From Longimicrobiales bacterium (GTDB lineage: Bacteria; Gemmatimonadota; Gemmatimonadetes; Longimicrobiales; Gaopeijiaceae): a stretch of DNA of 64,000 nucleotides. The stretch lies in contig CBDFIQ010000002.1 of NCBI GenBank assembly GCA_965248195.1, positions 1 to 64,000 on the forward strand, given 5' to 3'. The position numbers and the translations under genes are program-made. Under the pieces are notes generated by a model. The model ran no database searches, had not been told where the DNA came from, and was given only the letters and a program-made list of their open reading frames with translations. Positions 42,932-64,000 of the stretch are shown one piece after another (position 1 is the stretch's first letter; each line of letters starts with the position of its first letter).

Positions 42932-44307
42932 GGTCAAGTCCCGATTTGTGTGTAAAAGCGGAGGAAGCTCCTCGCCTTCGGCTAGGCTGCTTGGGCGACC
43001 TCCTGTTTCTGGAGGAGTGAGAGGTCGAGGTAACGCCGGTCGCCCCAGACGTGTGTGGTCCTGAGTGCGACGGCCGTGATGAGCCTGAGGGCGCTGGCCC
43101 GGTCCGGGAAGGCGCCGGCGGCCTTGATCCTGCGTTTGATCTCGCCGTGCAGCCGCTCGAGGCTGTTGGTGGTACGCAGCCGGGGCCAGTGCGCCTCGGG
43201 GAACGCGTAGAACTGCGTCGCTGCCCCGAAGCCCCGCTCCAGGACCTCCACGGCCTCGGGCAGCTCCTTCTTCCAGCGTGCGCCGAACTCGCCCAGGAGC
43301 TTCTTCGCCTCGGCGAGTCCGGATGTCTGGAAGATCACCGAGACCTCACGCGCCATGCGCTTGCGTAGGCGGTGGGGGACCCTCGCCCCCACATTACGCT
43401 GCAGATGGACCGTACACCTCTGACGGCGTGCCTCGGGCAGGAAGCGGCGGACCGCAGCTGCCAGGCCTGCGTGCTCATCGGCGATCACGAGCTCGACACC
43501 GCCGAGGCCGCGGTCCTGGAGTTGCTCGAGGAGCTCCGACCAGCTCTGCTGCGACTCCTCAGCGCCCAGCGTGACGGCCAGGAGCCGTCGGTGACCCTCA
43601 GGGCCCACTGCATACGCCACGAGCGCACTCACGTTCTCGACTTTGCGGGCCCAGCGGGCGTCCAAGAACGTGGCGTCCAGGTACAGATAGGGGTGAGGCC
43701 CCTCGATCGGCGCACGGCGCAGCCCTTCCACGGCCTCGTCGAGCCGTTTTGCCACACGACTCACCGTCGAGCGCCCAACACGCTCGCCCATCAGCGCCTC
43801 GGTGACGTCGCCCATCTTGCGCTGTGACACGCCGCTCACATACGCCTCGACCATCATCTCGTCGAGCTCGGGGCTCCTGCGCTGGTAGCGGCCGATCACG
43901 TCGGCCGGCGAACCGTTGTCCCGGCTCCGGGGCATGGCGACCTCGATCTGCCCCAGGCTCGTCAGCAGCCGCCTCAGGTATGTGCCGTTCCTATGGTCCT
44001 TCCGGCTTCCCACCCGCTCGAAGCGGCGTGCACCTACCATGGCCTTCAGCTCCTCTTCCAGCACCATCTCGAGCGTCAGCCGGATCGCGCCTTGAAACAG
44101 CTCGCGCAAATCATCGCGTAGCTCGTCTTGCGTGGCCCGACCGATCTCCACAATCTCTTGCATCGGAAGCTCCTCTCCGGTTCCGAGCCTGCTCTGCAGA
44201 CCCGGACTCCCGGGTTCATGTGACAGTGAACAACAACAGAGGAGCTTCCGTTTTTCTTTCCCTCCTGTCCAGCTTATCCGCTTTTACACAAATCTAGGGA
44301 CACTACC
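42932..44307 (-). mobile_element. IS256-family element, copy 2
   Basis: 9-bp target duplication GTAGATGCT (42923-31 / 44308-16). Confidence 0.95.
42982..44163 (-). CDS. IS256-family transposase
   Basis: Identical protein to 11959-13140. Confidence 0.95.
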   Translation of the reverse strand: MQEIVEIGRATQDELRDDLRELFQGAIRLTLEMVLEEELKAMVGARRFERVGSRKDHRNGTYLRRLLTSLGQIEVAMPRSRDNGSPADVIGRYQRRSPELDEMMVEAYVSGVSQRKMGDVTEALMGERVGRSTVSRVAKRLDEAVEGLRRAPIEGPHPYLYLDATFLDARWARKVENVSALVAYAVGPEGHRRLLAVTLGAEESQQSWSELLEQLQDRGLGGVELVIADEHAGLAAAVRRFLPEARRQRCTVHLQRNVGARVPHRLRKRMAREVSVIFQTSGLAEAKKLLGEFGARWKKELPEAVEVLERGFGAATQFYAFPEAHWPRLRTTNSLERLHGEIKRRIKAAGAFPDRASALRLITAVALRTTHVWGDRRYLDLSLLQKQEVAQAA

Positions 44308-45222: not shown

Positions 45223-47061
45223 CTAACCAGGACCGAGTCTAACCCCACAGATAAACCCGTTGCCGTCCCGGTCGGCGTTTCGGTAATCCTGGGTGTCGGG
45301 CATACTTAGACCTTCGTTGTCGGGTTTGAATATGCAGGTCTGGATCAGTCCGCCGAGCTGAGCAACCTGCAGGGGAACCACATTGCCAAGCTGGTTAGCC
45401 GAGAGGTTCAGGTCCTGGAGGTTTGACAGGCTCCCGAGCTCAGCGGGGATCGAGCCGGTCAGCTGATTCCCCTGGAGGCCCAGGATTGTGAGGTTTGACA
45501 GGTTCCCGAGCTCAGCCGGGATCGAGCCGGTCAGCTGATTCCGCCAGAGCTGCAGGTGAGCGAGGCTCGACAACTTCCCGAGCTCAGGAGGGATCGAGCC
45601 GGTCAGCTGGTTGTCACGGAGGTCCACGCTCTGGAGGCTTGACAGGTTCCCGAGCTCAGGGGGGATCGAGCCGGTTAGCTGATTCGCCTGGAGCCACAGG
45701 ACTGAGAGGTTCGACAGGTTCCCGAGCTCAGGAGGGATCGAGCCGGTTAGCTGATTCTCCCAGAGGCCCAGCCTTGTGAGGTTCGAGAGGTTCCCGAGCT
45801 CAGGGGGGATCGAGGTCAACTGGTTTAGACCGAGCGCCATTCGCAGGAGGCCCGACAGGTTCCCGAGCTCAGGGGGGATCGAGCCGGTCAGCTGGTTGTT
45901 AAAGAGGTTCAGGTCCTGGAGGTTTGACAGGTTCCCGAGTTCAGCCGGGATCGAGCCGGCTAGCTGATTCTCCTGGAGCCACAGCTCCTGGAGGTTCGAC
46001 AGGTTTCCGAGCTCAGGGGGGATCGAGCCGGTTAGCTGATTCACCCCGAGGCTCAGGCTTCCAAGGCTTGACAGGTTCCCGAGTTCAGGGGGGATCGAGC
46101 CGGTTAGCAGGTTAGCCGAGAGGTACAGGCCCTGGAGGTTTGACAGGTTCCCGAGCTCAGCGGGGATCGAGGTCAACTGGTTTTGGGCTAGCCCCAGCTC
46201 AAGGAGCTCCGACAGGTTCCCGAGCTCAGCCGGGATCGAGCCGCTCAGCTGGTTACCCGAGAGGTGCAGGCTTGTGAGGTTCGACAGGTTCCCGAGCTCA
46301 GGAGGGATCGAGCCGGTTAGCTGATTCCCCTGGAGCGACAGGACTGAGAGGTTCGACAGGTTTCCGAGCTCAGGGGGGATCGAGCCGGTTAACTGGTTTT
46401 CGATTAGCACCAGCTCAGCGAGCTCCGACAGGTTCCCGAGCTCGGGGGGGATCGCGCCCGTCAGGCTGTTGTCACGCAGGTTCAGGTTCTGGAGGCTTGA
46501 CAGGTTCCCGAGCTCAGGGGGGATCGAGGTCAACCCGTTTTGTGTGAGCTGCAGGCGTGTGAGGCTCGACAGGTTCCCGAGTTCAGGGGGGATCGAGCCC
46601 CTCAGCGAATTGGCGAAAAGGTCCAGGATCTGGAGGTTCGACAGGTTCCCGAGCTCAGGAGGAATCGACCCGTTCAGCCGGTTTCGCCGTAGGGAGAGGC
46701 CGGTAACAGCATCGCCGTTAGCACAGGACACACCGTGCCAACTGCATGGCGTCGTGCTCGTCAACCATCCCGTTATAAGTGTCCATTCTGGCCCGTTCGT
46801 AGCGACGTACAACGCCACTAGCGCGTCACACTCAACTGCGGAGATTGCCGATTGTGCTGAGCAAAGGGCGTTGACGGCAGGGGTCGGCTGGGTTGGGCTG
46901 TCGCTTCTCTTGCATGACGATGTGAGCACCACCGCGAGTCCCAGAAGAGTGAGACCCCAGAATCGACGAATGACGACTCCAAGCCTACAGACAAGAGGGG
47001 CATCGAGCTTCTGTGGCGGCCCCCTTGAGGCTCTACTCAAACGGGGGATGGAATCGGACAT
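45223..47061 (-). CDS. plant-type leucine-rich-repeat lipoprotein
   Basis: ~18 repeats of LxxNQLTGSIPPELGNLSNL, LRRNT cap (ALVALY...W...CSWHGVSC), lipobox-like TSSC; start uncertain. Confidence 0.9.
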   Translation of the reverse strand: MSDSIPRLSRASRGPPQKLDAPLVCRLGVVIRRFWGLTLLGLAVVLTSSCKRSDSPTQPTPAVNALCSAQSAISAVECDALVALYVATNGPEWTLITGWLTSTTPCSWHGVSCANGDAVTGLSLRRNRLNGSIPPELGNLSNLQILDLFANSLRGSIPPELGNLSSLTRLQLTQNGLTSIPPELGNLSSLQNLNLRDNSLTGAIPPELGNLSELAELVLIENQLTGSIPPELGNLSNLSVLSLQGNQLTGSIPPELGNLSNLTSLHLSGNQLSGSIPAELGNLSELLELGLAQNQLTSIPAELGNLSNLQGLYLSANLLTGSIPPELGNLSSLGSLSLGVNQLTGSIPPELGNLSNLQELWLQENQLAGSIPAELGNLSNLQDLNLFNNQLTGSIPPELGNLSGLLRMALGLNQLTSIPPELGNLSNLTRLGLWENQLTGSIPPELGNLSNLSVLWLQANQLTGSIPPELGNLSSLQSVDLRDNQLTGSIPPELGKLSSLAHLQLWRNQLTGSIPAELGNLSNLTILGLQGNQLTGSIPAELGSLSNLQDLNLSANQLGNVVPLQVAQLGGLIQTCIFKPDNEGLSMPDTQDYRNADRDGNGFICGVRLGPG

Positions 47062-51952: not shown

Positions 51953-51982
51953 GGCGTTAGGCCCGGTCTCGTGGGGTCCAGG

Positions 51983-52775
51983 CCTGGAGTTGCTCGAGGA
52001 GCTCCGACCAGCTCTGCTGCGACTCCTCAGCGCCCAGCGTGACGGCCAGGAGCCGTCGGTGACCCTCAGGGCCCACTGCATACGCCACGAGCGCACTCAC
52101 GTTCTCGACTTTGCGGGCCCAGCGGGCGTCCAAGAACGTGGCGTCCAGGTACAGATAGGGGTGAGGCCCCTCGATCGGCGCACGGCGCAGCCCTTCCACG
52201 GCCTCGTCGAGCCGTTTTGCCACACGACTCACCGTCGAGCGCCCAACACGCTCGCCCATCAGCGCCTCGGTGACGTCGCCCATCTTGCGCTGTGACACGC
52301 CGCTCACATACGCCTCGACCATCATCTCGTCGAGCTCGGGGCTCCTGCGCTGGTAGCGGCCGATCACGTCGGCCGGCGAACCGTTGTCCCGGCTCCGGGG
52401 CATGGCGACCTCGATCTGCCCCAGGCTCGTCAGCAGCCGCCTCAGGTATGTGCCGTTCCTATGGTCCTTCCGGCTTCCCACCCGCTCGAAGCGGCGTGCA
52501 CCTACCATGGCCTTCAGCTCCTCTTCCAGCACCATCTCGAGCGTCAGCCGGATCGCGCCTTGAAACAGCTCGCGCAAATCATCGCGTAGCTCGTCTTGCG
52601 TGGCCCGACCGATCTCCACAATCTCTTGCATCGGAAGCTCCTCTCCGGTTCCGAGCCTGCTCTGCAGACCCGGACTCCCGGGTTCATGTGACAGTGAACA
52701 ACAACAGAGGAGCTTCCGTTTTTCTTTCCCTCCTGTCCAGCTTATCCGCTTTTACACAAATCTAGGGACACTACC
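51983..52775 (-). mobile_element. IS256-family element, truncated copy 3
   Basis: Matches the 5' ~790 bp of the other copies; transposase truncated at LEQLQ. Confidence 0.9.
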
Positions 52776-54019: not shown

Positions 54020-54367
54020 ATGAACCGTCTTGTACTGCCGTTCATTATCGGCTCGCTTCTTTTCCCGATGGGCTGCGGCGACTCGACTGGGCCGAAGCTT
54101 GCTAGCGTCGATGTCAGTCCGGCAACGACGACCTTGGCGGTGATCGGCGGCACGGTCCAGTTTACCGCCATTGGCCGGGATTTGAATGGGAATGCGATCA
54201 TAAGCGGGGGATTTGTCTGGTCGTCCTCCAACCCGCAGGTGGCGACCGTGGGCGAATCCAGCGGTCTGGCCACGGCGGTGGCAAACGGGAGCACCATGAT
54301 CTCCGCTGACAGCCCGTCGCTTCTTGGCCAGTCGGGGTCCGCTACGTTGACTGTGGCTGCACCGTAG
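54020..54367 (+). CDS. Ig-like (Big_2) domain lipoprotein
   Basis: MGCGDSTGP; VSP, WSSSNPQVATV, GLATAV. Confidence 0.8.
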   Translation: MNRLVLPFIIGSLLFPMGCGDSTGPKLASVDVSPATTTLAVIGGTVQFTAIGRDLNGNAIISGGFVWSSSNPQVATVGESSGLATAVANGSTMISADSPSLLGQSGSATLTVAAP

Positions 54368-55583
54368 CTGGCCCGCGAGACGCCATCGGTCGGTTCGGCC
54401 GCGTCCGGGACGGAGCCATGCACACGATCAAAGGCCGCAGGGTATGAAGCACCTCGATGGTGTCGCCTTGGGCCTCAAGTACATCCGGAAGCCGGCGGTA
54501 CGCCTGGGGGGCTTCGTCTAGGTCGCCGCCGCGGAGCACGACGCCCTTGTCGTCCAGCCACGTTTGCATCTCTTCATGGCTGATTTTGCCCGGCCTCACC
54601 ATCCGCCCCTTCTTCCATTTGCCAGCGGCCTCCATCCTGCCCATCACGCGGCCCGCTCCGTGGACGGTGGAGAATAGAGCGTTCCCCTTCATCGCCCAGT
54701 CGTCGGGATCCGGGGAGTGTTGCCCCTGGAGGATCACCGAGTCGTCCCCCATCGAGCCGCCGACGAAACCCTTCTGGCCGGGGAACGCGGGTGTCGCTCC
54801 CTTACGTACAACGACCAACTCCTCGCCGTCGTGCTCCTCTTTCCACGCGAAATTGTGGTGATTGTGGACCAACTCCATTTCTTGCCCGCCGATGATCTCG
54901 ACGACCTTGCGTGTCACCCACTCGCGACCAGCGTAGGCGTACTCTCCGGCCAGGCTCATCGCTTCCCAATAGTCATGTCCCAGCGGGGTGGAGAGATCCA
55001 GCAACACTTCCGCGTTCATGTCGGGCCGGTCGCCCCAATAGAGACCTTGAGCTAGTGCGACGAAGTTGTGAGCGAGGTTGAAGCCGAGCGCCCGGCTCCC
55101 AAAGTGGACGCCCACCCATACCGCTCCCACCTCATCGGAGAACACGTCCACGTAGTGATTGCCACCACCCATCGTACCGAGTTGCGCCCGAGACTTCCCC
55201 TGAAGGTTACCTCGGTGCTTCCTCGGGATGACGGCCCACCTGGGGTCCTCGAACAGCGGATCGTCTTTCGGTGCGTCGTCGCAGGAGTTCGACATCCCCG
55301 GCCCGAACGCGATCGTATCGAAGATTTCGTCAGCCAGGTCGGGCAGGTCGTCCACCAGAGCTTCGGCAATCAGATCGGTGCGGATCGCCGCGTTCCCGCA
55401 GCCGATGTCCACCCCCACGCCGATCGGTGAGACCCTGTTCCGATACGCGGCTACGCCTCCGATCGGCATGACGTACCCCAAGTGCCCGTCGGCCATCAAC
55501 GCCGCCCGGTCTGCTCTTGAGGCAACATCGTTGAATTGCTCCAGGGTCTTGTCGTCATGAACTCCAAATACGTGTGAAATCAT
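54342..55583 (-). CDS. rtcB: RtcB-family RNA ligase
   Basis: MADGHLGY, GVDIGCG, GGGNHY, HFGSR, HHN, RKGATPA, HGAGR, DEAPQAY. Confidence 0.93.
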   Translation of the reverse strand: MISHVFGVHDDKTLEQFNDVASRADRAALMADGHLGYVMPIGGVAAYRNRVSPIGVGVDIGCGNAAIRTDLIAEALVDDLPDLADEIFDTIAFGPGMSNSCDDAPKDDPLFEDPRWAVIPRKHRGNLQGKSRAQLGTMGGGNHYVDVFSDEVGAVWVGVHFGSRALGFNLAHNFVALAQGLYWGDRPDMNAEVLLDLSTPLGHDYWEAMSLAGEYAYAGREWVTRKVVEIIGGQEMELVHNHHNFAWKEEHDGEELVVVRKGATPAFPGQKGFVGGSMGDDSVILQGQHSPDPDDWAMKGNALFSTVHGAGRVMGRMEAAGKWKKGRMVRPGKISHEEMQTWLDDKGVVLRGGDLDEAPQAYRRLPDVLEAQGDTIEVLHTLRPLIVCMAPSRTRPNRPMASRGPATVQPQST

Positions 55584-55790
55584 TCGCTCGTCAGCCCTCA
55601 GCCAGACGTCTCCCACCCAATACGAAAGGGAGCACGCTCGAGTCGCTTGAGTCTCTAGTCCTAAACTGTCCACTGTACGGGGGCAACTCCAAACGCCTCT
55701 CTAGGCCACGAGGATGGAGCCATACCCCGGCGCGTAAGCTGCGCAGGATGTTGCTTGGCGTAGCGGTCGCCCTCGACCCGCGGGATGACC

Positions 55791-57503
55791 TCACAGCACC
55801 TTGAGGTACTCCAGGAGCGCGGTCTTCTGCTCTTCCGTGAGCGACCTGAACTCGGTCTCATGGCCTGACCGGCCCCTTCCCGGCGAGCCGGTATCGTAGA
55901 GGGTCGGGCTGGACCAGGGGGTGTAGCCGGCTGGATAGCCGTACACGCCCGCATCGTCCCGCTCGCCGGCAATGCCCACGTGCTCGAAGTCGAGCATGTG
56001 CCCACCGACCATGAAACGGTCGGGCCGCATCTCGGGGTGCATCAAGTGCCAAAGCGTCGGGACCGAGCCGTTGTGCAGATAAGGCGCGGTCGCCCAGAGG
56101 GCCGTCAGAGGCTGCGCGACGTATCCGCCGGTGGTCGTCACGTCCAGGTATCGTCCGTACGGTGTGGCGTGGACCTCGTCGGCGAACTCTGCGGTCGCCA
56201 GCTCCCACCGGTGCGGGTCAGTGCCCATCGAGTCCTGCGGTACGAGTCGATTGGGGAAGCTGACCAGGACCACGTCCTCGAGGCCCTCCGAGAACTTGCC
56301 GTGACAGGCGGCGCAGTCCTGTTGGTAGATTCGCCGTCCATCCATCGCGAGAGCCGAATCGATCGAGCTCGGGAACGGCGGTGCGCGGAGCACCTCCAGA
56401 ATTTCCATGAAGTACCGAACGCCGTCGTAACCGTCACGCGCCTTGTTCGGCGGGACCCCCAGGGTCGGCACGACGAAGAAGGTCGTGATGTCGGCAAGTC
56501 CGTCGAGGTGCGTGTTGGTGACCTGCGCGAGCTGCATCTCCGCGAAGCGAGGTCGATGGGGTAGTCCGTACGTGCCGTCGTACAGCAAGGAACTCCGCAG
56601 GACTGTGCCACCGAGATCCGGGATGGACGTGAACGCCACCTCGGTGGCAGTCTCGTCCTCTCCCAACATGCCGAGGATGTTCTTGATCGACGCCACCCCG
56701 TTCGTGAGGCCCGCGCTCCCGTTGATGAACGGGAGCGGTGAGGCTCGCCCTCGCCACTCCTCTGCGAAGCGATCCCGGAGAAGGGGAAGCGCGTGATCAC
56801 GGATCGTGTCGCGCTCGCGGATCGACATATCCCCGAAAAGTGTGTCCATCGCTTCCCAGAACCGCTCCTCCTGGCCCTGGAAGTGGGCGAGGCTCCGAAA
56901 CAGTGTGGTCACATAAGCCTCGAGGTCGAGCGACGTGTTCGGGAGGCCGATCCAGGCGTCTCGAGTCGCGCGGCCGGTCTTGTCGTAGAGCACGCCGGTA
57001 TGGCACGCGGCGCATCCCACGTTTGCTCCCTCCAGCTCCACGGACGGGAACCCACGCGACATCGTGCCGCGCACGAGGCCGATGGGTCCGTCGAGCGCGG
57101 GCGGCGGGCCCCGCCAGTTGAGGATCGAGTCGGCTTGAATGAAGCCCATCTCGGCGAGCAGACGGGTGAGCGTCGCGAGCTCGAGCGGCAGACCCCCCTC
57201 GTCGTGGGCCTCGAGCACCATAGCCGTGGCGGCGACCTTCCACGGTACCGTGTGCCGGTCCAGGCCGTCCGTGTTGAGGCTGCCCCAGTCGTCATAGAAG
57301 AAGTGCGCCACTCCGAGCGCCGCCGGGTCACCACCGGCTTCTTCGATCGAAGAGACGGCGGGGTCGAGCCCGATCGGGCGACCCGAGGCGTACCCGCGGA
57401 GCAGCCTACCCGGCCATGCGCATCCGATAGCGAGGCCACAGAGAAGGACGACCGACGAGAAGCGAAGGACGACCAACGAAAAGCGGAAGACGTTCATAAT
57501 CAC
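55791..57503 (-). CDS. dihaem c-type cytochrome, RoxA/peroxidase-like
   Basis: Two CAACH motifs, GTDP, LWATAPYLHNGSVPTL, GH...LLEYLKVL. Confidence 0.8.
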   Translation of the reverse strand: MIMNVFRFSLVVLRFSSVVLLCGLAIGCAWPGRLLRGYASGRPIGLDPAVSSIEEAGGDPAALGVAHFFYDDWGSLNTDGLDRHTVPWKVAATAMVLEAHDEGGLPLELATLTRLLAEMGFIQADSILNWRGPPPALDGPIGLVRGTMSRGFPSVELEGANVGCAACHTGVLYDKTGRATRDAWIGLPNTSLDLEAYVTTLFRSLAHFQGQEERFWEAMDTLFGDMSIRERDTIRDHALPLLRDRFAEEWRGRASPLPFINGSAGLTNGVASIKNILGMLGEDETATEVAFTSIPDLGGTVLRSSLLYDGTYGLPHRPRFAEMQLAQVTNTHLDGLADITTFFVVPTLGVPPNKARDGYDGVRYFMEILEVLRAPPFPSSIDSALAMDGRRIYQQDCAACHGKFSEGLEDVVLVSFPNRLVPQDSMGTDPHRWELATAEFADEVHATPYGRYLDVTTTGGYVAQPLTALWATAPYLHNGSVPTLWHLMHPEMRPDRFMVGGHMLDFEHVGIAGERDDAGVYGYPAGYTPWSSPTLYDTGSPGRGRSGHETEFRSLTEEQKTALLEYLKVL

Positions 57504-58705
57504 CCCGGGCTCAGTAGCCTGGCATACTTCTGCAGCAACGCCATCTCCAGCATGGGATTATACGTACTCGTGAACTGCGGAAGATTTAGTAGTAGGAATG
57601 CGTACGGTTTCTGCGAGAGGAGCGCGACGTGTGTCATGCCGTTCTGCTCGAGAAGCCCGATGAGCTGCTCCGTCCCTTCACGATCGTCCTGACGCTTGCC
57701 GAGACCGGCCCTGAGGCTCGATAGCGTGCACACCGCATCTGCCCCGTCCAACACGTCCGCCATCTCCGCCGGCTCGTAAAGGTCCAGGTCCGATCCACGA
57801 ACGACTAAGTGCTCCCGAGCGAGGGGGAGGCGATAAAGCGAGTCGATGAAGTCGTTGATCGACCCGGTTCGTGCATCCAGGAGCCACCGGAAGAAGGAAG
57901 TGCTCTGGCTGTCGCGCCGCAGGCTCCTCAACCGCTCGAGAATGATGAAGAGCAAGACGAAGGAGAAGGACACGAAGAACATCGCGAAGTACAGGTCCGT
58001 GGCCCCGCCCGGGGCGAGGACCGCTAAGGTGCTGGTGACCACCAAAGCCCCGGCACCGACCCAGAACAGTTCTCGAACCACGAACACCCATGACTCATCC
58101 GGGTCCGTGAACCGCACGCAGACGTAGACGAAGATCAGGCCGCCGATCCCGCCGAGCCGGAAGTGCAGCCAGCTCGGAGCGATCTGGAGATCGGTCAGCG
58201 CGAGCACGAACGCGATGGCCAGGGCGGTCGTCACTCCCGTGATGAGGCGGTTCTCCATGGGAGCGTGTCCCCTCCGGTCCCGGAAGGCGACAACGAGAGC
58301 GAGCCCTGCGAAAGTTCCGAGCGTGACCACCTTGGAGATCGTCCAGAGGTCGTCCCGACTGACGAGAGGGACCAGGTTCAAAACGACGCAGGCCAGGGTG
58401 CCGACCGCCATGAACACCTTGAAAGAGGGACGTAGGTGTCGTCGCGTGAGCGCCTCCACAAACAGCCCCAGGGCCAGTGGGAGAAGTGTGGCCGGCACAA
58501 ACGAAGTCACCTGGAGGCGCTCGTCTTCCGTGAGCCAATAGAATCCTCTGCTGATGAAGAGCGCGGCCAGGCAATACAGCAGCACCAGCATCATCAGTTC
58601 GAGGTAGCTCCGGCTGCGATCTCGGTGGATATGCGCGATGTAGGCGATGGCTCCCGCGGCACCGACGAAGCTGAGGATCGGATCGGTCCAGGTCTCAAAT
58701 CCCAT
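57500..58705 (-). CDS. polytopic membrane protein with soluble C-terminal domain
   Basis: ~9 hydrophobic helices; GTGA overlap with the downstream gene. Confidence 0.75.
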   Translation of the reverse strand: MGFETWTDPILSFVGAAGAIAYIAHIHRDRSRSYLELMMLVLLYCLAALFISRGFYWLTEDERLQVTSFVPATLLPLALGLFVEALTRRHLRPSFKVFMAVGTLACVVLNLVPLVSRDDLWTISKVVTLGTFAGLALVVAFRDRRGHAPMENRLITGVTTALAIAFVLALTDLQIAPSWLHFRLGGIGGLIFVYVCVRFTDPDESWVFVVRELFWVGAGALVVTSTLAVLAPGGATDLYFAMFFVSFSFVLLFIILERLRSLRRDSQSTSFFRWLLDARTGSINDFIDSLYRLPLAREHLVVRGSDLDLYEPAEMADVLDGADAVCTLSSLRAGLGKRQDDREGTEQLIGLLEQNGMTHVALLSQKPYAFLLLNLPQFTSTYNPMLEMALLQKYARLLSPG

Positions 58706-59597
58706 CGGTCAGCCTCCGCATGAACCGTCGTACCAACCAGCCGAGTACCCAGGCTGTTGGCCGGCCTCTCGGCCGCTCGACACGCGCCGTCCATGGATTG
58801 AAGAAGTAGCCGCGATGATCGGTACCGGATCGCCTACCGAGGATGAGATTGATCGCCTCGAAGCACATGAGATTTCCGGCCGTGATCACCATGGGGGCGA
58901 ACGACATCCGGCTCCGCTCCCCGGTCAGCATCTCGGCGGCGATCTCTAGATCGAGATGGTGGCGGGAGGTAGAGTGGACGAGGACGTGCTCGATCTCCCG
59001 ACGCAGGCAGGTGTCTTCGTCCTCCGAAGAGACCTCGGTCCACGCCTTGTCCAACGTCGGGAAACGGAGTCGCTCCTCCGGCCGAGGGTCGCTTGGCCCG
59101 ACGACGTAGACCGACGGGAGAGGCGACGCATAGGCGTCGATCACCGTGGCTCCGTGCTCGCGGGCCTTCCGGTACAGCTGCACGCCGCTCGGGATGTGAT
59201 CCATGCCGTTGATCACGATCGGGTGCTCCGGAAGTAGGTCGTCGAGCTGCTCGATCCATTCCCCTGCCCGGGTCGTGACGTCCAGCTCGGGATTGATCGT
59301 GAGGAGCTGTCCGCGGACGGCCTCCACCTTGTTCTCACCCACCGTATCCATCGAGGCGAACACCTGGCGGTTCAGGTTGGACAGCTCGAAGCGATCGATA
59401 TCGGCGATCGTGAGCTTGGAGACGCCCGCTCGGGCGAGCGAGAGCGCACAGGCACCACCCATGCCCCCCACGCCACAGACGAATACTTCCGCACCTCGGA
59501 TCCGCTCCTGCTCCGCCTCGGTGACGAAGCCGATGTTGCGTTGCACGAACTCGGCGTAGTCGAAGGCCGAAGCTGGCGGCGGGTTCATTTCTTCCAT
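58695..59597 (-). CDS. ThiF/HesA/MoeB-family adenylyltransferase
   Basis: RNIG, GVGGMGG, ADIDRFELSNLNRQ, K; no Zn-binding CxxC pair. Confidence 0.9.
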   Translation of the reverse strand: MEEMNPPPASAFDYAEFVQRNIGFVTEAEQERIRGAEVFVCGVGGMGGACALSLARAGVSKLTIADIDRFELSNLNRQVFASMDTVGENKVEAVRGQLLTINPELDVTTRAGEWIEQLDDLLPEHPIVINGMDHIPSGVQLYRKAREHGATVIDAYASPLPSVYVVGPSDPRPEERLRFPTLDKAWTEVSSEDEDTCLRREIEHVLVHSTSRHHLDLEIAAEMLTGERSRMSFAPMVITAGNLMCFEAINLILGRRSGTDHRGYFFNPWTARVERPRGRPTAWVLGWLVRRFMRRLTDGI

Positions 59598-60529
59598 GGT
59601 CTCAAATCGCGGAATTGGGTGCCGGCGCTGAACCAGTGGAGCATCGGGAGGAGGACGGAGCCTCCGAGTAGGAAGAGCGCCTGATAGAGGATGGACCCGA
59701 GCGATCGGCGAGGCACGGAGCGCAGGAGGTACCGCCTGGCGGTGGGAAGCCTGAACTGACCGATCTGGAGGAAGTCGTCTCCCCGATCGTAGTCGAGCTC
59801 GGTAGCGCAGACTTCGTTGTGCGAGTCCTGTCGATGTTTGGGAGCCGCGTCGAACGTTTTCTTGAGATTGTCGGAACCACCTGTGTAAGAGTCGGTGATG
59901 ACGAAGCGCTCGACGTCGAAGCCCGCTTCGTCGGCCACGCCGAAAACGTGTCGATGATCGGCCATGATTTGGCGGGCGATCGTAAGATGATTGTACGACC
60001 TCCGTGTCTCCCCGGAGCCTGACGGGAAGACATCGTCGAAGCTCTCAGATACCATGCCGAACACGGCTGGGACCTGGGTGACACTGCTGATCCAGAGAGG
60101 TCTCAGCTGCCGGTGGAAGAAGGTGAGCATCACGCTCAGTCCGTAGAGCACCCACGAGAGCCGCTTGCTCCGGAAGTCCGGATCGACCATGACCAGGCCC
60201 ATGTGGAGCAAATCCTCCTGGACGCCTCGAACATCCAGTGTGATGAGGGACAACGCGTTGAACGCAACCGGTCGGTTGGCCCCACATTCGTAGAGCACGG
60301 TCAGGACTGCGCGGTCGAGACAATCGGAGTTGCCGGTCAGGACGCCGTATTCGAGGGGCCCTCCCTCGAGCGAGCTCGCCGCGACCGTGCGCAAGTCTTC
60401 GACGAGGTCCTGAAGCTCATCAGGGGACATCCACAGACCCGGGCACTCCACGACACGTGCCCGCTGGTTGTTCGCGACGGAAAGCTCGACGTCGAGATAC
60501 CTGGCGCTCAGCTTGCGAATGCGCACCAT
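59585..60529 (-). CDS. hypothetical protein, possible GNAT/acyltransferase fold
   Basis: LHMGLVMVDPDFRSKRLS resembles GNAT motif A. Confidence 0.6.
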   Translation of the reverse strand: MVRIRKLSARYLDVELSVANNQRARVVECPGLWMSPDELQDLVEDLRTVAASSLEGGPLEYGVLTGNSDCLDRAVLTVLYECGANRPVAFNALSLITLDVRGVQEDLLHMGLVMVDPDFRSKRLSWVLYGLSVMLTFFHRQLRPLWISSVTQVPAVFGMVSESFDDVFPSGSGETRRSYNHLTIARQIMADHRHVFGVADEAGFDVERFVITDSYTGGSDNLKKTFDAAPKHRQDSHNEVCATELDYDRGDDFLQIGQFRLPTARRYLLRSVPRRSLGSILYQALFLLGGSVLLPMLHWFSAGTQFRDLRPWKK

Positions 60530-61567
60530 CTAGACCAGCAACTCGTCGGGTGGAAGGCGCGGGCTCTTAGGGGCGCCGTCCGGTGGGGCCTTCCCTACTC
60601 GGAACACGTTGATCACGGAAGCGTCTGGTTCGAGTCCACACCGTGTGCGCAAGCTCGCGCACTCGTCGAGATCGTCGGCCAACGCCGACATAGGGCATGC
60701 GCTCAACCCGCGGCGTGTGAGCTCGAGCCAGATCCGGTAGAAACTCCGGCCGGCCTCGAACCAGCCAGCGCTCTGACCCTGGTGGAGAACCAGCAGCGCA
60801 GCGGCAGAGCGGGTCGCACCGGCCTCGGCAGTGGCGAGTCGACCGAGGCCCGTGAGCTTCAAAACTCTGAACATGCCTGGCCTGAAGAGCATGACGGCTG
60901 CCCGAGCTTCGAGGGACGACATCGCCATACAGTCGGCGGTCAGGCCATCGCGTTGCCAGTCGGGGTGCGCCGGTGTGAAGCGGAGCCATGCATAAAGCTC
61001 GGCCTGCAACTCGGGGATCTCGAGGAACCGATAGGAGCTCCGGTCGTGGGCGCACGCCAGGTCGGCGATCTCTGTCGGAGCATCGATGACGGAGAGGCCC
61101 TCCTGAGTGTCGGCGAGACTTCGGACGCTCTTGAGCGCACTCGGGTCCGCCTGGAACCGGCTGCGGTAGCTTCGCCGGAGGGTGACAAACTCGGCGAGCG
61201 GTTCGCGGGCTCCTATCTCCGCGAGGGTGGTGCTGGCGACCAAGCGATATGGCCCTCCGTCGGTAGCCCCGCCCTCCGTTGGGTCCCCGAGGTCGAGGTC
61301 CGCCAGGTCAGGGGCACTGAGGCCGAGCCCGCGACAGGATAGAGCCAGGCTCATGCCCTCGAAGGCCGCTCCCAGGCTGACCATCGCGTCCTTTCCGGTC
61401 GGGTCCGCGAAAGGGACGCGCCTGCTCACGTCCACCAGCAAAAGCACACGCCCTCCCGGCAGAAACCGCCACCTGGCCGGCTGCGTATTGTGCGCGCTCG
61501 GAGACCGGTTCGCCTCGGCTACAAGGGCCAGAGCGTCCTCGCGGGTGAGGTCGACCATCGGGCTCAT
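60530..61567 (-). CDS. nitroreductase-fold (Acg-like) FMN protein
   Basis: RSPSAHNTQP, SLGAAFEG, RRSYRSRF, AGR...WLELT. Confidence 0.85.
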   Translation of the reverse strand: MSPMVDLTREDALALVAEANRSPSAHNTQPARWRFLPGGRVLLLVDVSRRVPFADPTGKDAMVSLGAAFEGMSLALSCRGLGLSAPDLADLDLGDPTEGGATDGGPYRLVASTTLAEIGAREPLAEFVTLRRSYRSRFQADPSALKSVRSLADTQEGLSVIDAPTEIADLACAHDRSSYRFLEIPELQAELYAWLRFTPAHPDWQRDGLTADCMAMSSLEARAAVMLFRPGMFRVLKLTGLGRLATAEAGATRSAAALLVLHQGQSAGWFEAGRSFYRIWLELTRRGLSACPMSALADDLDECASLRTRCGLEPDASVINVFRVGKAPPDGAPKSPRLPPDELLV

Positions 61568-62673
61568 CAGAGGGGTCTCCGGAAGAGATGAAGCCGATGG
61601 AGCGGCCGACCCCCCAGCTTCTCCACCTGGCGGAGGCTGGCCTTGTTCTCGTCCGCGATCCACGTCAAGCCGAGGTGCGTGTAGCCAGCACCCTTGAGAG
61701 CCGTCGTGACACAATGGAGCATGGCCGGGTTCAGTCCCTGTCCCCACATCGACGGATGTACGGCCCAAAAGATGATCACCGCGCGACGGCGGTTCCCCAA
61801 ATACTTCAGGTAGCGGAAGGGGAAGGAGGGGCCGAACCGGGAGCCCGCGCTCTTCAGCAGGGGATTCAGGTCGGGAATACAGACCACTACGCCGACCGGT
61901 TCGTCCTCTCGGTACACGAGGTGGGACAGCCGCCCGTCGATGATCCACATCATCTCCTCGGCCTGGAAGAAGAACTCCTTCCTTGTGGGGGGCACGAACA
62001 TCGGGTTCCGGTCGAAGCTCACGTTCAGAACCGTGCGCATGTCCTCCAGCTGCCTACGGAAGCCGCGCCGCCGTATCGGGACCCAGCGCAGTTCGCTGCG
62101 GTCGAGCAACTCCTGGACCTTTGGATTCACCATTCGCTCGGCGGCGAACCCATCTAGCTCGAGCTCATGCGTAGTCATGGGGAAGAACGGCTCGAAGCCG
62201 CATTCAACAAGAAGACGCGGGATGTGTTGGGGGTTGTAGTGCATGTCGGTGTAGGCCGGGTTCCCGAAGCCCTCGGTCACGATGCCGATCTGTTGCATCG
62301 CTGTGAGATTGAAGTTGCCGGCAAGCTCCTCACACCCTTTCTGCCTACTCCACTCGGCTGCAGCTCCGAGCAACTCGCCTGCCACCTCCACGTCGTCCAC
62401 GCAATCGAAGAAGCCGAAGTAGGCTCGCCTGAGGCCATGGCGCTCGTTGGAATCGTGGTGGACATGTGCTACGACGCGCCCGAGCGACTGGCCATTACGA
62501 CGGACGCTGAAGTAGGTGAAGTCCCCGTGGTCTCTGAAAAGCGGATTCTTCCGGCCGTCCAGGAGCCGGGCGAGATCCGAGCGCATGAGGGACGTGAACA
62601 CGGGGTCGTCCCCGTACGAGTCGAAGGGGGCGGCGAAGAAGCTGTCGAAGTCGCGTTCGCAGAGTTCGTTCAC
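61567..62673 (-). CDS. GNAT-family N-acyltransferase (YghO-like)
   Basis: GRVVAH, YFGFFDC, YNPQH, IPDLN, AVHPSMWGQG, WIADEN. Confidence 0.8.
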   Translation of the reverse strand: MNELCERDFDSFFAAPFDSYGDDPVFTSLMRSDLARLLDGRKNPLFRDHGDFTYFSVRRNGQSLGRVVAHVHHDSNERHGLRRAYFGFFDCVDDVEVAGELLGAAAEWSRQKGCEELAGNFNLTAMQQIGIVTEGFGNPAYTDMHYNPQHIPRLLVECGFEPFFPMTTHELELDGFAAERMVNPKVQELLDRSELRWVPIRRRGFRRQLEDMRTVLNVSFDRNPMFVPPTRKEFFFQAEEMMWIIDGRLSHLVYREDEPVGVVVCIPDLNPLLKSAGSRFGPSFPFRYLKYLGNRRRAVIIFWAVHPSMWGQGLNPAMLHCVTTALKGAGYTHLGLTWIADENKASLRQVEKLGGRPLHRLHLFRRPL

Positions 62674-62682
62674 GGATCCGTC

Positions 62683-63885
62683 CTAAAAGAACAGGGTGAA
62701 ACTGAGCGACAGGTACTTGTCGAGCCGCCGAACGAACGTCGGCTCGTCCGAGGAATTGCCACCGAAGAGACGGCCGTCGAGCTCCACCGTCGCCCGGTCG
62801 CTTATCCTCCGGGATGCCGTGGCGGACGTGATCACGTTGCCACTCCGATAGTCGACCAAGGTGCGGCCCGAGACGGTCCAATCCTGCGTGAGGAGCCGGG
62901 CTCCGACGAAGAAATCGTTCTCCGTAGATGCCGTCGCGTCCTCTCCCCTGCCGTCGTACAGGTACTCGACGAAGACGCTCAGGTATGGGGCGAGCGCGTA
63001 CTCGAGGCCGCCAACGACTGCATAGAACTCCTCGAAGTCCGAAGCGCGGCGGAGCAACTCGACCTTCAGAAGTAGGGCGTCGCGCGTCCACTGTGCGTCG
63101 AGACTGGTCTGATTGATCTGGTCGTAGAACGGGATCCAACCCCGACCACCCCCGACCTGGGGTGATGGCTCGAAGCGCGGGTCGCGGTTGGTCCCCGAGA
63201 AGTGGGCCACGCCGAGGTCGAAGCCCCCCACGAAGTGGCTCCAGCGGAGGGCCCAGTCTATGTGTTCACGGCCCCGCTCGTGCTCGAACTCAACCGCGTC
63301 CTCATCGACCGGCAGCGAGGACCAGAGTGCTCCCCCTCGTCCCGCGAAACTCCGCTCCCGAAAGTACGGAAGCACGTAGCCCTCGAAGCTCCCCAGCGAC
63401 GTGAACGTCTTGAGGTTGAGGAGCGGCTGACCGAGCCGGCCCGGCGCCGGCGCGTCTTCCCCGAAGTCCCGCTGGTTGATCACGTCTACGAGCGCGACCG
63501 ACTCCGCCACGCCCCAGTTGAGCTGTCTCATGCCGACCGCAACTTCCCAGTCGTCCCAGATCTTCTCCCACACCAGATCGCGGAAGTCGAGGCGAGTTCG
63601 CGACTCGTTGTTCGGGTCGATGCGGATGAAGGGTGCGACGGTCAGGATCTGGGACCGGTCGTCCCATGTGAGTGAGCCTTCGACTTGCACGGTGAGGCTC
63701 AGCTCGTGGCGCGGGGCTTCCCCCGGGGCACTGTCGGAATAACCACGGGTGCCGATGGCTGCGCTTCCCGACCACTGCGCGGAGGCGGATGCTGGAGCGA
63801 CACCCCAGCAGGTGATCACGAATGCCAGCGTGCGCGTGAGGGAAGGATGTCGGACGCCTTCACCGGGTCGTCGAGGTAGTTGCAC
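62683..63885 (-). CDS. outer-membrane beta-barrel protein
   Basis: Signal peptide, WGVAES..VDVINQRD, LPYFRER, terminal F. Confidence 0.8.
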   Translation of the reverse strand: MQLPRRPGEGVRHPSLTRTLAFVITCWGVAPASASAQWSGSAAIGTRGYSDSAPGEAPRHELSLTVQVEGSLTWDDRSQILTVAPFIRIDPNNESRTRLDFRDLVWEKIWDDWEVAVGMRQLNWGVAESVALVDVINQRDFGEDAPAPGRLGQPLLNLKTFTSLGSFEGYVLPYFRERSFAGRGGALWSSLPVDEDAVEFEHERGREHIDWALRWSHFVGGFDLGVAHFSGTNRDPRFEPSPQVGGGRGWIPFYDQINQTSLDAQWTRDALLLKVELLRRASDFEEFYAVVGGLEYALAPYLSVFVEYLYDGRGEDATASTENDFFVGARLLTQDWTVSGRTLVDYRSGNVITSATASRRISDRATVELDGRLFGGNSSDEPTFVRRLDKYLSLSFTLFF

Positions 63886-63892
63886 GGGGCGG

Positions 63893-64000
63893 CTACCTGC
63901 GTCCCAGGCGCCGAGGATCGAAAACCCCGTCGCTCAGATCGGTCGCGAAGGCGTACTCGCTCCACTCCAAGGTGGTGGACTTCCCCGACGCGAGCTCGTT
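63893..64000 (-). CDS. C-terminus of an outer-membrane lipoprotein-sorting (LolA-like) protein, partial
   Basis: NELASGKSTTLEWSEYAFATDLSDGVFDPRRLGRR*. Confidence 0.65.
   Translation of the reverse strand, partial: NELASGKSTTLEWSEYAFATDLSDGVFDPRRLGRR

Follow-up and report, generated by a model that had tools for sequence, protein, structure and literature searches.

The described systems nearest to the locus examined here are the gene clusters for oxazolone lipids, namely OxzAB of Pseudoalteromonas rubra (bioRxiv 10.1101/2020.06.11.147165), TyzACB (PMC10404671), TrzAS (PMC12856293) and the stieleriacine-type clusters (PMC12479983). In the known pathways an N-acyltransferase is accompanied by ThiF and FDO enzymes, and mmpL9 is a neighbour of tyz (PMC10404671). 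For TyzB/TyzC, desaturation is reported to be possible at either point (PMC12856293), and the Discussion of that paper calls the role of bacterial oxazolone lipids unresolved. We describe a related cassette in a 64,000-nucleotide stretch of DNA (hereafter the window) from a Longimicrobiales bacterium (GCA_965248195.1, contig CBDFIQ010000002.1, here C2, positions 1 to 64,000 of the forward strand), where it occupies positions 55791-64000 on the minus strand and runs past the window end. The invariant core of the cassette is a pair of genes, one for a GNAT-fold protein that we call X and one for a membrane protein that we call TM, and its ThiF and nitroreductase genes are dispensable add-ons. 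The cassette is real and is co-inherited in bacteria of at least four phyla.

Like the oxazolone pathways as those reports describe them, the cassette brings a GNAT-fold acyltransferase, a ThiF protein and an Acg/FDO-type nitroreductase together in one cluster; like tyz, it has them as separate genes with an adjacent MMPL gene, and versions without ThiF and oxidase are found among both. Unlike them, it has an acyltransferase without profile similarity to the eight FeeM/OxzA-like proteins of OxzB-like loci that were compared, a ThiF that forms a clade of its own, a seven-helix membrane protein as fixed partner, and in addition a ceramide-synthase homologue and a di-haem enzyme, the last three being absent from the components given in the parts of the reports that were available. 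The cassette probably works like an extended oxazolone or N-acyl-amide pathway, but its acyltransferase falls outside the synthase family of those pathways. No description of the cassette was found in the literature as judged by titles and the openings of abstracts, a scope that mostly excluded subscription papers, and unnamed nodes in the networks of PMC12856293 and PMC10404671 may include these ThiFs or oxidases.

Conservation of the X-TM pair and its partner genes

The operon is made up of nine abutting minus-strand genes in the order MMPL, LolA-like, barrel, tandem GNAT, nitroreductase, X, ThiF, TM and di-haem, separated by 15, 7, 9, −1, 0, −4, −11 and +2 nt, the −4 spacer being an ATGA overlap. 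Judged by the open reading frames, seven of the genes lie wholly within the window and an eighth, the LolA-like gene, reaches into it with its 3' end; reading the same contig onward completed that gene (63893-64669) and placed an MMPL gene at 64685-67054, which is the first gene of the operon and lies wholly outside the window. The initial annotation had described co-directional, abutting genes continuing beyond the window and had pointed upstream for an MMPL gene, and both points held, as did its expectation that the genes are conserved together. A genome of the same genus (G005) carries all nine, unchanged in order, within a single block of 11.3 kb that is 88% identical at the nucleotide level, and six of them recur among 80 related loci of four phyla; the operon is therefore genuine and not a chance assembly. 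A scan for promoters and terminators upstream of the MMPL gene found none.

The 80 loci are the best of at least 548 relatives that an X profile recognised among 591 pattern matches in GTDB (L003 and L125, apparently one contig, were counted once). They were fetched by X, and the presence or absence of each gene was scored with profiles built from the same loci. Pseudomonadota contributed 67, Gemmatimonadota 8, Acidobacteriota 2 and Myxococcota 1, with 2 unassigned, and the nearest named relatives are Gemmatimonadota. X and TM occurred together in all 80 loci (TM being cut in one), and it is this pair, rather than ThiF and the nitroreductase, that forms the centre of the cassette. Among the 71 loci with at least 6.5 kb of downstream sequence, which we call uncut, the complete six-gene set was present in 33 and, with a partial haem gene, in 1 more; X and TM stood alone in 15, the haem gene was missing from 12, GNAT and haem were both missing from 5, and the other 5 had single other forms. 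The haem gene was found only alongside GNAT and ThiF (35 of 35 uncut loci that bear it), and a full GNAT gene was always accompanied by ThiF (47/47 uncut loci). The oxidase occurred without ThiF in one case. ThiF, GNAT and haem occurred without the oxidase in L004 and in the genomes G030 and G595, the latter two having an X-ThiF-GNAT-haem form that lacks TM as well. The common order was X-ThiF-TM-GNAT-oxidase, with the haem gene usually convergent; it belongs to the operon here, but elsewhere it is usually not co-transcribed.

On a FastTree tree of the window copy and 79 loci (L061, with a truncated X, was left out), the ThiF-less state needed 9 changes, 7 of them forced by starred branches. 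In a Mesorhizobium locus (L053:10927-12843), ThiF, GNAT and oxidase persist as stubs around intact X and TM. This is a cassette in mid-erosion, and it is these stubs that demonstrate loss of the add-ons, since the counts alone give no direction. Four genomes with X and TM only, for which completeness was not given, showed no ThiF of the cassette type at another site (best E 2e-24, whereas a control gave 2e-141). X was present in 3 of 41 relatives and in 5 of 301 genomes of the phylum, the genome under study included. Of 24 loci recovered from metagenomes with a TM-less X as seed, 21 had TM and 3 ended early, and no additional TM-less copy was found among them. Three in-frame fusions also join cassette genes, X-ThiF in P0271 and ThiF-GNAT in P0272 and P0273. 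Two kinds of apparent fusion were set aside as likely artefacts and not used as evidence: the partially joined X-TM proteins P0172, P0267 and P0279, and a GNAT-oxidase read-through in L039.

Properties of the encoded proteins

X (59585-60529, minus strand; 314 aa) gave no Pfam or NCBIfam match, FeeM, Acetyltransf_5 and Autoind_synth included. It had 2780 homologues among 4382 candidates, and no Pfam family was found in the 120 of these that were listed. The AlphaFold2 (AF2) model of X (predicted local distance difference test, pLDDT, 86) has a GNAT fold, as the initial annotation had anticipated, with GNAT matches at Z 9-11; the best had Z 11.1 at a root-mean-square deviation (rmsd) of 3.5 over 179 aligned residues, and RpaI (Z 10.0), LasI (9.7) and FeeM (9.1) were near-tied rows. 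The protein carries a V-D-P-x-x-R-S-x-G-L-S stretch, which we take to resemble the GNAT CoA-binding motif, and a hydrophobic C-terminal tail (residues 279-297). The only match of the X profile in a sequence search of the PDB had an E value of 0.62 and was discarded as chance. No profile similarity was detected between X and the tandem GNAT of the cassette. X cannot be placed by sequence among the FeeM/OxzA-type N-acyl amino acid synthases, one of which had been supposed to be present, and the second acyltransferase, a YghO/ceramide-synthase homologue, is not one either; X is best described as an unnamed, highly conserved family, predicted from its modelled fold to be an acyl-CoA N-acyltransferase. 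A distant relative, P0280 (603 aa, four ENA records), has an X-like GNAT fused to a PlsC-type acyltransferase, which by its domains is a lipid-synthesis architecture. The Ala-rich composition of P0280 suggests a eukaryotic source; in the Atlas, 94% of the cluster that holds X is bacterial.

TM (57500-58705, minus strand; 401 aa) was modelled with nine helices in its N-terminal 277 residues followed by a small cytoplasmic alpha/beta domain (AF2, pLDDT 88). The first seven helices are predicted to form a bundle like that of G-protein-coupled receptors (GPCRs): the top 50 VIA structural rows were nearly all GPCRs or GPCR-like, the best with Z 14.9, rmsd 4.0 and 204 aligned residues. Foldseek with the same model returned nothing under E 0.001, and the TM profile had no match below E 0.05 among PDB sequences. 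An Atlas neighbour of TM at 0.90 has HisKA_7TM on 22% of its members, and the C-terminal domain has a GAF-like Atlas lead at 0.81-0.86 that we treat as a lead only. Residues R53, P76, E84, H90, K96, D172 and P367 were invariant in 76 of 76 sequences. Helices 2 and 6 are inferred to carry R53 and D172, respectively, at their outer ends, and an E84-x3-R-R-H-x5-K segment after helix 3 was invariant or nearly so in the same set. No output domain (kinase, cyclase or helix-turn-helix) was found on the best 150 of 621 TM relatives; 147 of these have at most 450 aa, and of the three that are longer two are X-TM joins and the third has an unassigned N-terminal extension. TM looks receptor-like in its predicted fold, in keeping with the suggestion in the initial annotation that the membrane protein might be a sensor.

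In the predicted X-TM complex the score was 0.43, against 0.01 for the best control, with runs agreeing in 100% of contacts and a partner pLDDT of at least 77. Of the solved pairs 116 of 157 reached the docking mark, as did 2 of the 215 mismatched pairs, and since the range up to 0.60 holds only 18 of the solved pairs and both mismatches, the prediction lends weak support to docking of TM on X. All 80 GTDB loci with TM retain the C-terminal tail of X, and the TM-less copies of G030 and G595 lack it, as scored by profile coverage (a stricter pattern for the tail was too narrow, 49/75).

The cassette ThiF (58695-59588, minus strand; 297 aa, with an alternative ATG at 59597) matched PF00899 at E 2e-36, and its best NCBIfam match was PRK08223, followed by ThiF, MoeB and PRK14851, all below cut-off. 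It retains the ATP-binding residues in the alignment, whose roles we assign from general knowledge of the family. Canonical ThiF/MoeB sulfur-carrier activators have C-terminal zinc-binding CxxC motifs; none of 60 cassette ThiFs has a CxxC after residue 100, and the genome's own MoeB has one. The cassette ThiF profile scored OxzB-like ThiFs at 99-132 bits, against 52-87 bits for other ThiF/MoeB matches. The OxzB-like set was drawn from 22 genomes out of 300 that were scored in a search with a fused ThiF-nitroreductase, and it consists of stand-ins chosen by architecture rather than of characterised enzymes. An N-terminal signature, R-[NT]-x-G-[FW], is common to the cassette and OxzB-like ThiFs and is absent from the genome's MoeB. 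The nitroreductase-fold flavoprotein (60530-61567, minus strand; 345 aa) matched PF00881 and, as its best NCBIfam family, Acg NF047509 (E 5e-45; 154 bits against a cut-off of 199), and also PRK07877 and PRK14851. Its sole PDB match was Acg (2ymv), and it matched the oxidase parts of OxzB-like loci. A 472-aa reading of this frame from 61948 was rejected as an over-call, homologues of about 320-340 aa fitting the ATG at 61567. These comparisons place the flavoprotein with the Acg-type monomeric (FDO) nitroreductases of the oxazolone pathway, at a level that does not separate the FDO-A and FDO-B subclusters, as a predicted desaturase. The earlier proposal that it and ThiF are nearest to the oxazolone-pathway subfamilies is supported for the flavoprotein by NCBIfam and the PDB and for ThiF by the profile scores and the common signature, although the cassette ThiFs form a clade of their own.

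The tandem GNAT (61567-62673, minus strand; 368 aa) matched PF00583 and was 23% identical over its full length to E. coli YghO (E 3e-35), with which it shares motifs in the alignment. In the accessible text of PMC9386255, yghO is given alongside CC_1154 as an aca (ceramide N-acyltransferase) gene, and the full-length homology assigns the cassette protein by sequence to the bacterial ceramide synthases bCerS/Aca/YghO (PMC11087976, PMC9386255), with amide formation as its predicted reaction. Unlike bacterial ceramide synthesis as those sources present it, the cassette has no gene for a serine palmitoyltransferase (Spt) or for the reductase (CerR), none being linked in the operon or among the recurring neighbours in the 80 loci, and its GNAT is tied to ThiF, twice by fusion. 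Elsewhere in the genome, at C2:102966-107365 (L084:6966-11365), a YghO/bCerS-like GNAT, a DxD glycosyltransferase, an Spt-like pyridoxal-phosphate enzyme and an epimerase/reductase stand in a row, a probable sphingolipid locus; the genome's own Spt-linked GNAT copy is just 25% identical to that of the cassette.

The di-haem c protein (55791-57497, minus strand; 568 aa, with an alternative GTG start at 57503) matched PF21419 at E 6e-20. It lies far outside the RoxA, RoxB and RoxC families as defined by their models (53, 58 and 73 bits against cut-offs of 1000, 900 and 900) and just below the cut-off of NF040606 (144.6 against 150 bits),. With the rubber oxygenase RoxA and the PA2077/PA2078 oleate-diol synthase, to which its similarity is patchy, it nevertheless appears to share export, a size of about 60 kDa, two CxxCH motifs, PYxHNGSVP and a C-terminal distal His, features of the RoxA/PA2077-type di-haem cytochrome c peroxidase subfamily, as far as the accessible part of the literature describes these enzymes (PMC4496055), where PA2077 of P. 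aeruginosa is a RoxA-related periplasmic di-haem enzyme that oxygenates oleate. Both CxxCH motifs and a C-terminal GH were invariant in 29 of 29 haem proteins and the His of PYxHNGSVP was present in 25; the C-terminal His aligns with that of RoxA, and RoxA 4b2n was the only close PDB relative. The N-termini look like signal peptides by eye. The protein is predicted to be a periplasmic lipoprotein or membrane-anchored oxygenase or peroxidase. A second RoxA-like region (C2:2848578-2849195) is 34% identical to its C-terminal part.

A proposed pathway and its alternatives

We tentatively favour, at slightly under an even chance, a reading in which the cassette makes a fatty-acyl amide lipid by means of X, the add-ons subject this lipid to ring closure, desaturation, a further amidation and oxidation, and TM, docked on X, acts as a regulator that binds a ligand. 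X, tethered by its C-terminal tail, would join an acyl group from acyl-CoA to an amine, probably an amino acid, to give an N-acyl amide. By analogy with its kin OxzB and TyzB, ThiF might adenylate the carboxyl group, leading either to closure of an oxazolone ring or to an activated acyl donor, and the Acg-type flavoprotein, if it behaves like TyzC, would desaturate the amino-acid part before or after the ThiF step. The ThiF-GNAT fusions and the nested presence of the genes are consistent with the ceramide-synthase-like GNAT drawing on the ThiF product for a second amidation, and hence with a larger, possibly two-tailed lipid. The exported di-haem protein would, on the precedent of RoxA and PA2077, oxygenate or destroy the product outside the cytoplasm, and in this lineage the MMPL, LolA-like and barrel proteins may export it. 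TM would sense the lipid or an outside cue and would tune X directly, since domains of the kinase, cyclase and DNA-binding kinds are all missing from it. Nested presence and fusions together suggest the order X, ThiF, GNAT, haem, with the desaturase independent.

Synthase-receptor pairs are familiar from quorum sensing: in the LuxM/LuxN and CqsA/CqsS systems a signal synthase is coupled with a membrane receptor. The cassette resembles them in that an enzyme like a signal synthase is stably paired with a multi-helix, receptor-like membrane protein. Unlike these receptors and the HisKA_7TM and 7TMR-DISM sensors, to which TM has sequence links below cut-off, TM lacks an output part, be it a kinase, a cyclase or a DNA-binding domain, and unlike the synthase-receptor quorum systems, the cassette has no regulator conserved across phyla near it. 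A more far-reaching version of the proposal, in which an output-less receptor of GPCR fold directly switches a lipid-amide synthase as a new two-protein signalling unit, an oxazolone serves as donor for the ceramide-synthase homologue to give a new lipid class, and the di-haem oxygenase matures or clears the signal, strikes us as rather unlikely.

Several observations weigh against the acyl-amide reading with TM as regulator. FeeM was only row 45 of the fold search with X (Z 9.1, rmsd 3.2, 155 aligned residues), behind many protein acetyltransferases, and X gave an hhalign probability of 0.2% against eight FeeM/OxzA-like proteins of OxzB-like loci, two of which were scanned as a control and both matched FeeM. 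With no synthase profile similarity and this low rank of FeeM, the acceptor of X could be a protein or an amine other than an amino acid. The cassette ThiFs formed their own clade and did not fall inside the OxzB-like group in a tree of 44 rows with one outgroup and an unresolved base. The Z scores of 12-15 for TM are close to what helical bundles reach by chance (about 13); a 7TMR-DISM_7TM match was found in 5 of 76 TM members (best E 2e-4), with the window protein under the cut-off, and TM against six HisKA_7TM domains gave a weak hhalign probability of 2.8%. The profile that measured the X tail was built from TM-bearing copies, and both TM-less copies sit on one branch, so the correlation of tail and TM may reflect a single event. 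The fusions are supported by 1-4 sequences each. Finally, the haem gene was lost in 12 loci that keep GNAT, and the nesting is therefore suggestive rather than a statistic.

The same acyl-amide chemistry could instead yield a structural, ceramide-like membrane amino-lipid, with TM serving X as a subunit for catalysis, lipid presentation or transport and not as a sensor. The ceramide-synthase homologue within the cassette, the fusion of an X-like domain to PlsC and the missing output domain on the best 150 of 621 TM relatives would all suit this alternative, the invariant charged residues within the membrane part of TM could be catalytic, and rhizobial copies adjoin an MFS-PlsC-AMP-binding gene (a cluster over 18 loci). 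Nevertheless, the fold of TM and its Atlas neighbours are receptor-like, the two genomes with a four-gene set have X without TM, the presence of X in just 3 of 41 relatives suits an accessory trait, and the Aas-like neighbour may be inherited synteny; we regard this alternative as rather unlikely. The roles of the two core proteins could also be reversed, TM being the receptor, for which the other enzymes make or clear the ligand, and X its output, which would acetylate a protein or small molecule under control of the signal. The stability of X and TM alone in 15 of 71 uncut loci, the four genomes of this kind without a cassette-type ThiF, the protein N-acetyltransferases among the best fold matches of X and the weakly predicted X-TM complex fit this arrangement. 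X is, however, also found with ThiF, GNAT and haem and no TM, a fusion to ThiF (P0271) and a distant one to PlsC (P0280) tie it to biosynthesis, and neither a regulator nor a target gene nearby shows conservation between phyla, so that an X-output arrangement appears quite unlikely.

A detoxifying or catabolic unit, in which the haem protein oxidises a lipid or toxin from outside, which is then activated, acylated and reduced inside, seems to us improbable. GNATs and nitroreductases are frequently detoxifying enzymes, and MMPL, LolA-like and barrel proteins could transport in either direction. RoxA and PA2077 are described, in the accessible part of PMC4496055, as oxidising hydrophobic substrates. 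Against this, the haem gene is the one most often missing and never occurs without GNAT and ThiF, the reverse of what an entry step would require, and the ThiF and oxidase are closest to biosynthetic subfamilies. It is very improbable that the ThiF serves a sulfur carrier, ubiquitin-like protein, tRNA or precursor peptide in cofactor synthesis, defence or formation of a ribosomally synthesised and post-translationally modified peptide, because its generic matches to MoeB, MccB, TcdA and defence E1-E2 models cover the N-terminal ATP-binding part only, the CxxC motif is missing from all 60 sequences, PADLOC gave just the generic E1-E2 matches for ThiF and none for the five other cassette proteins, the genome has a separate MoeB, and the abutting genes leave no room between them for a small carrier (neighbour clustering covered open reading frames of at least 100 aa, and a smaller partner in the flanks is conceivable).

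On the acyl-amide reading, the cassette offers a new acyltransferase family of about 2,800 largely unannotated proteins and, in TM, a candidate for a dedicated receptor. Two of its enzymes would follow the oxazolone step, and one of these is a ceramide-synthase homologue encoded away from a sphingolipid locus. Its partial forms make up a natural deletion series in cultured genera (Ensifer, Shinella, Cupriavidus, Mesorhizobium, Bradyrhizobium and Yoonia), and each step can therefore be assigned by comparing strains.

Putative export genes and neighbouring features

The export genes, which the initial annotation had treated as a general part of the system, were scarce in the 80 loci (MMPL in 1, LolA-like in 2, barrel in 2). 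The trio is still attached in the rearranged locus L004, and being rare elsewhere yet kept there it is best regarded as a lineage-specific accessory. The MMPL/RND-type transporter (789 aa, minus strand) matched PF03176 at E 5e-31 and the LolA-like periplasmic carrier (258 aa, minus strand; 63893-64000 within the window) matched PF17131 at E 4e-57. The probable outer-membrane beta-barrel (62683-63885, minus strand; 400 aa) is a weaker assignment that rests on its position, its sequence pattern and a DUF2490 match at E 0.026. A second MMPL, LolA-like and barrel trio, with a paralogue of this barrel, lies at C2:572321-575683 without a cassette.

Upstream of the MMPL gene a divergent gene starts at 67203 (C2:67203-70721, plus strand); it encodes a 1172-aa cyclase-AAA-TPR protein and shares the upstream region of the operon, and TPR proteins are likewise found upstream in loci L006 and L007. 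Beside the rhizobial cassettes MFS-PlsC-AMP-binding (Aas-like), TetR and PspA genes recur, in clusters over 18, 20 and 11 loci, respectively (an Aas-like example is at L025:15135-19637), a neighbourhood that may be inherited synteny. Directly downstream of the operon is an RtcB-family RNA ligase gene (window 54342-55673, minus strand), which is not among the recurring neighbours elsewhere. A transposase-like open reading frame is present in two copies, one whole and one partial, at window positions 42982-44163 and 51957-52631, and another transposase-like frame lies at C2:71331-72338, so that such frames, putatively of the IS256 and IS3 families, flank the operon region. Between the two copies in the window, at 45223-47061 (minus strand), is a gene for a 612-aa leucine-rich-repeat protein with a lipoprotein-like N-terminus, whose repeats resemble by eye those of plant receptors.

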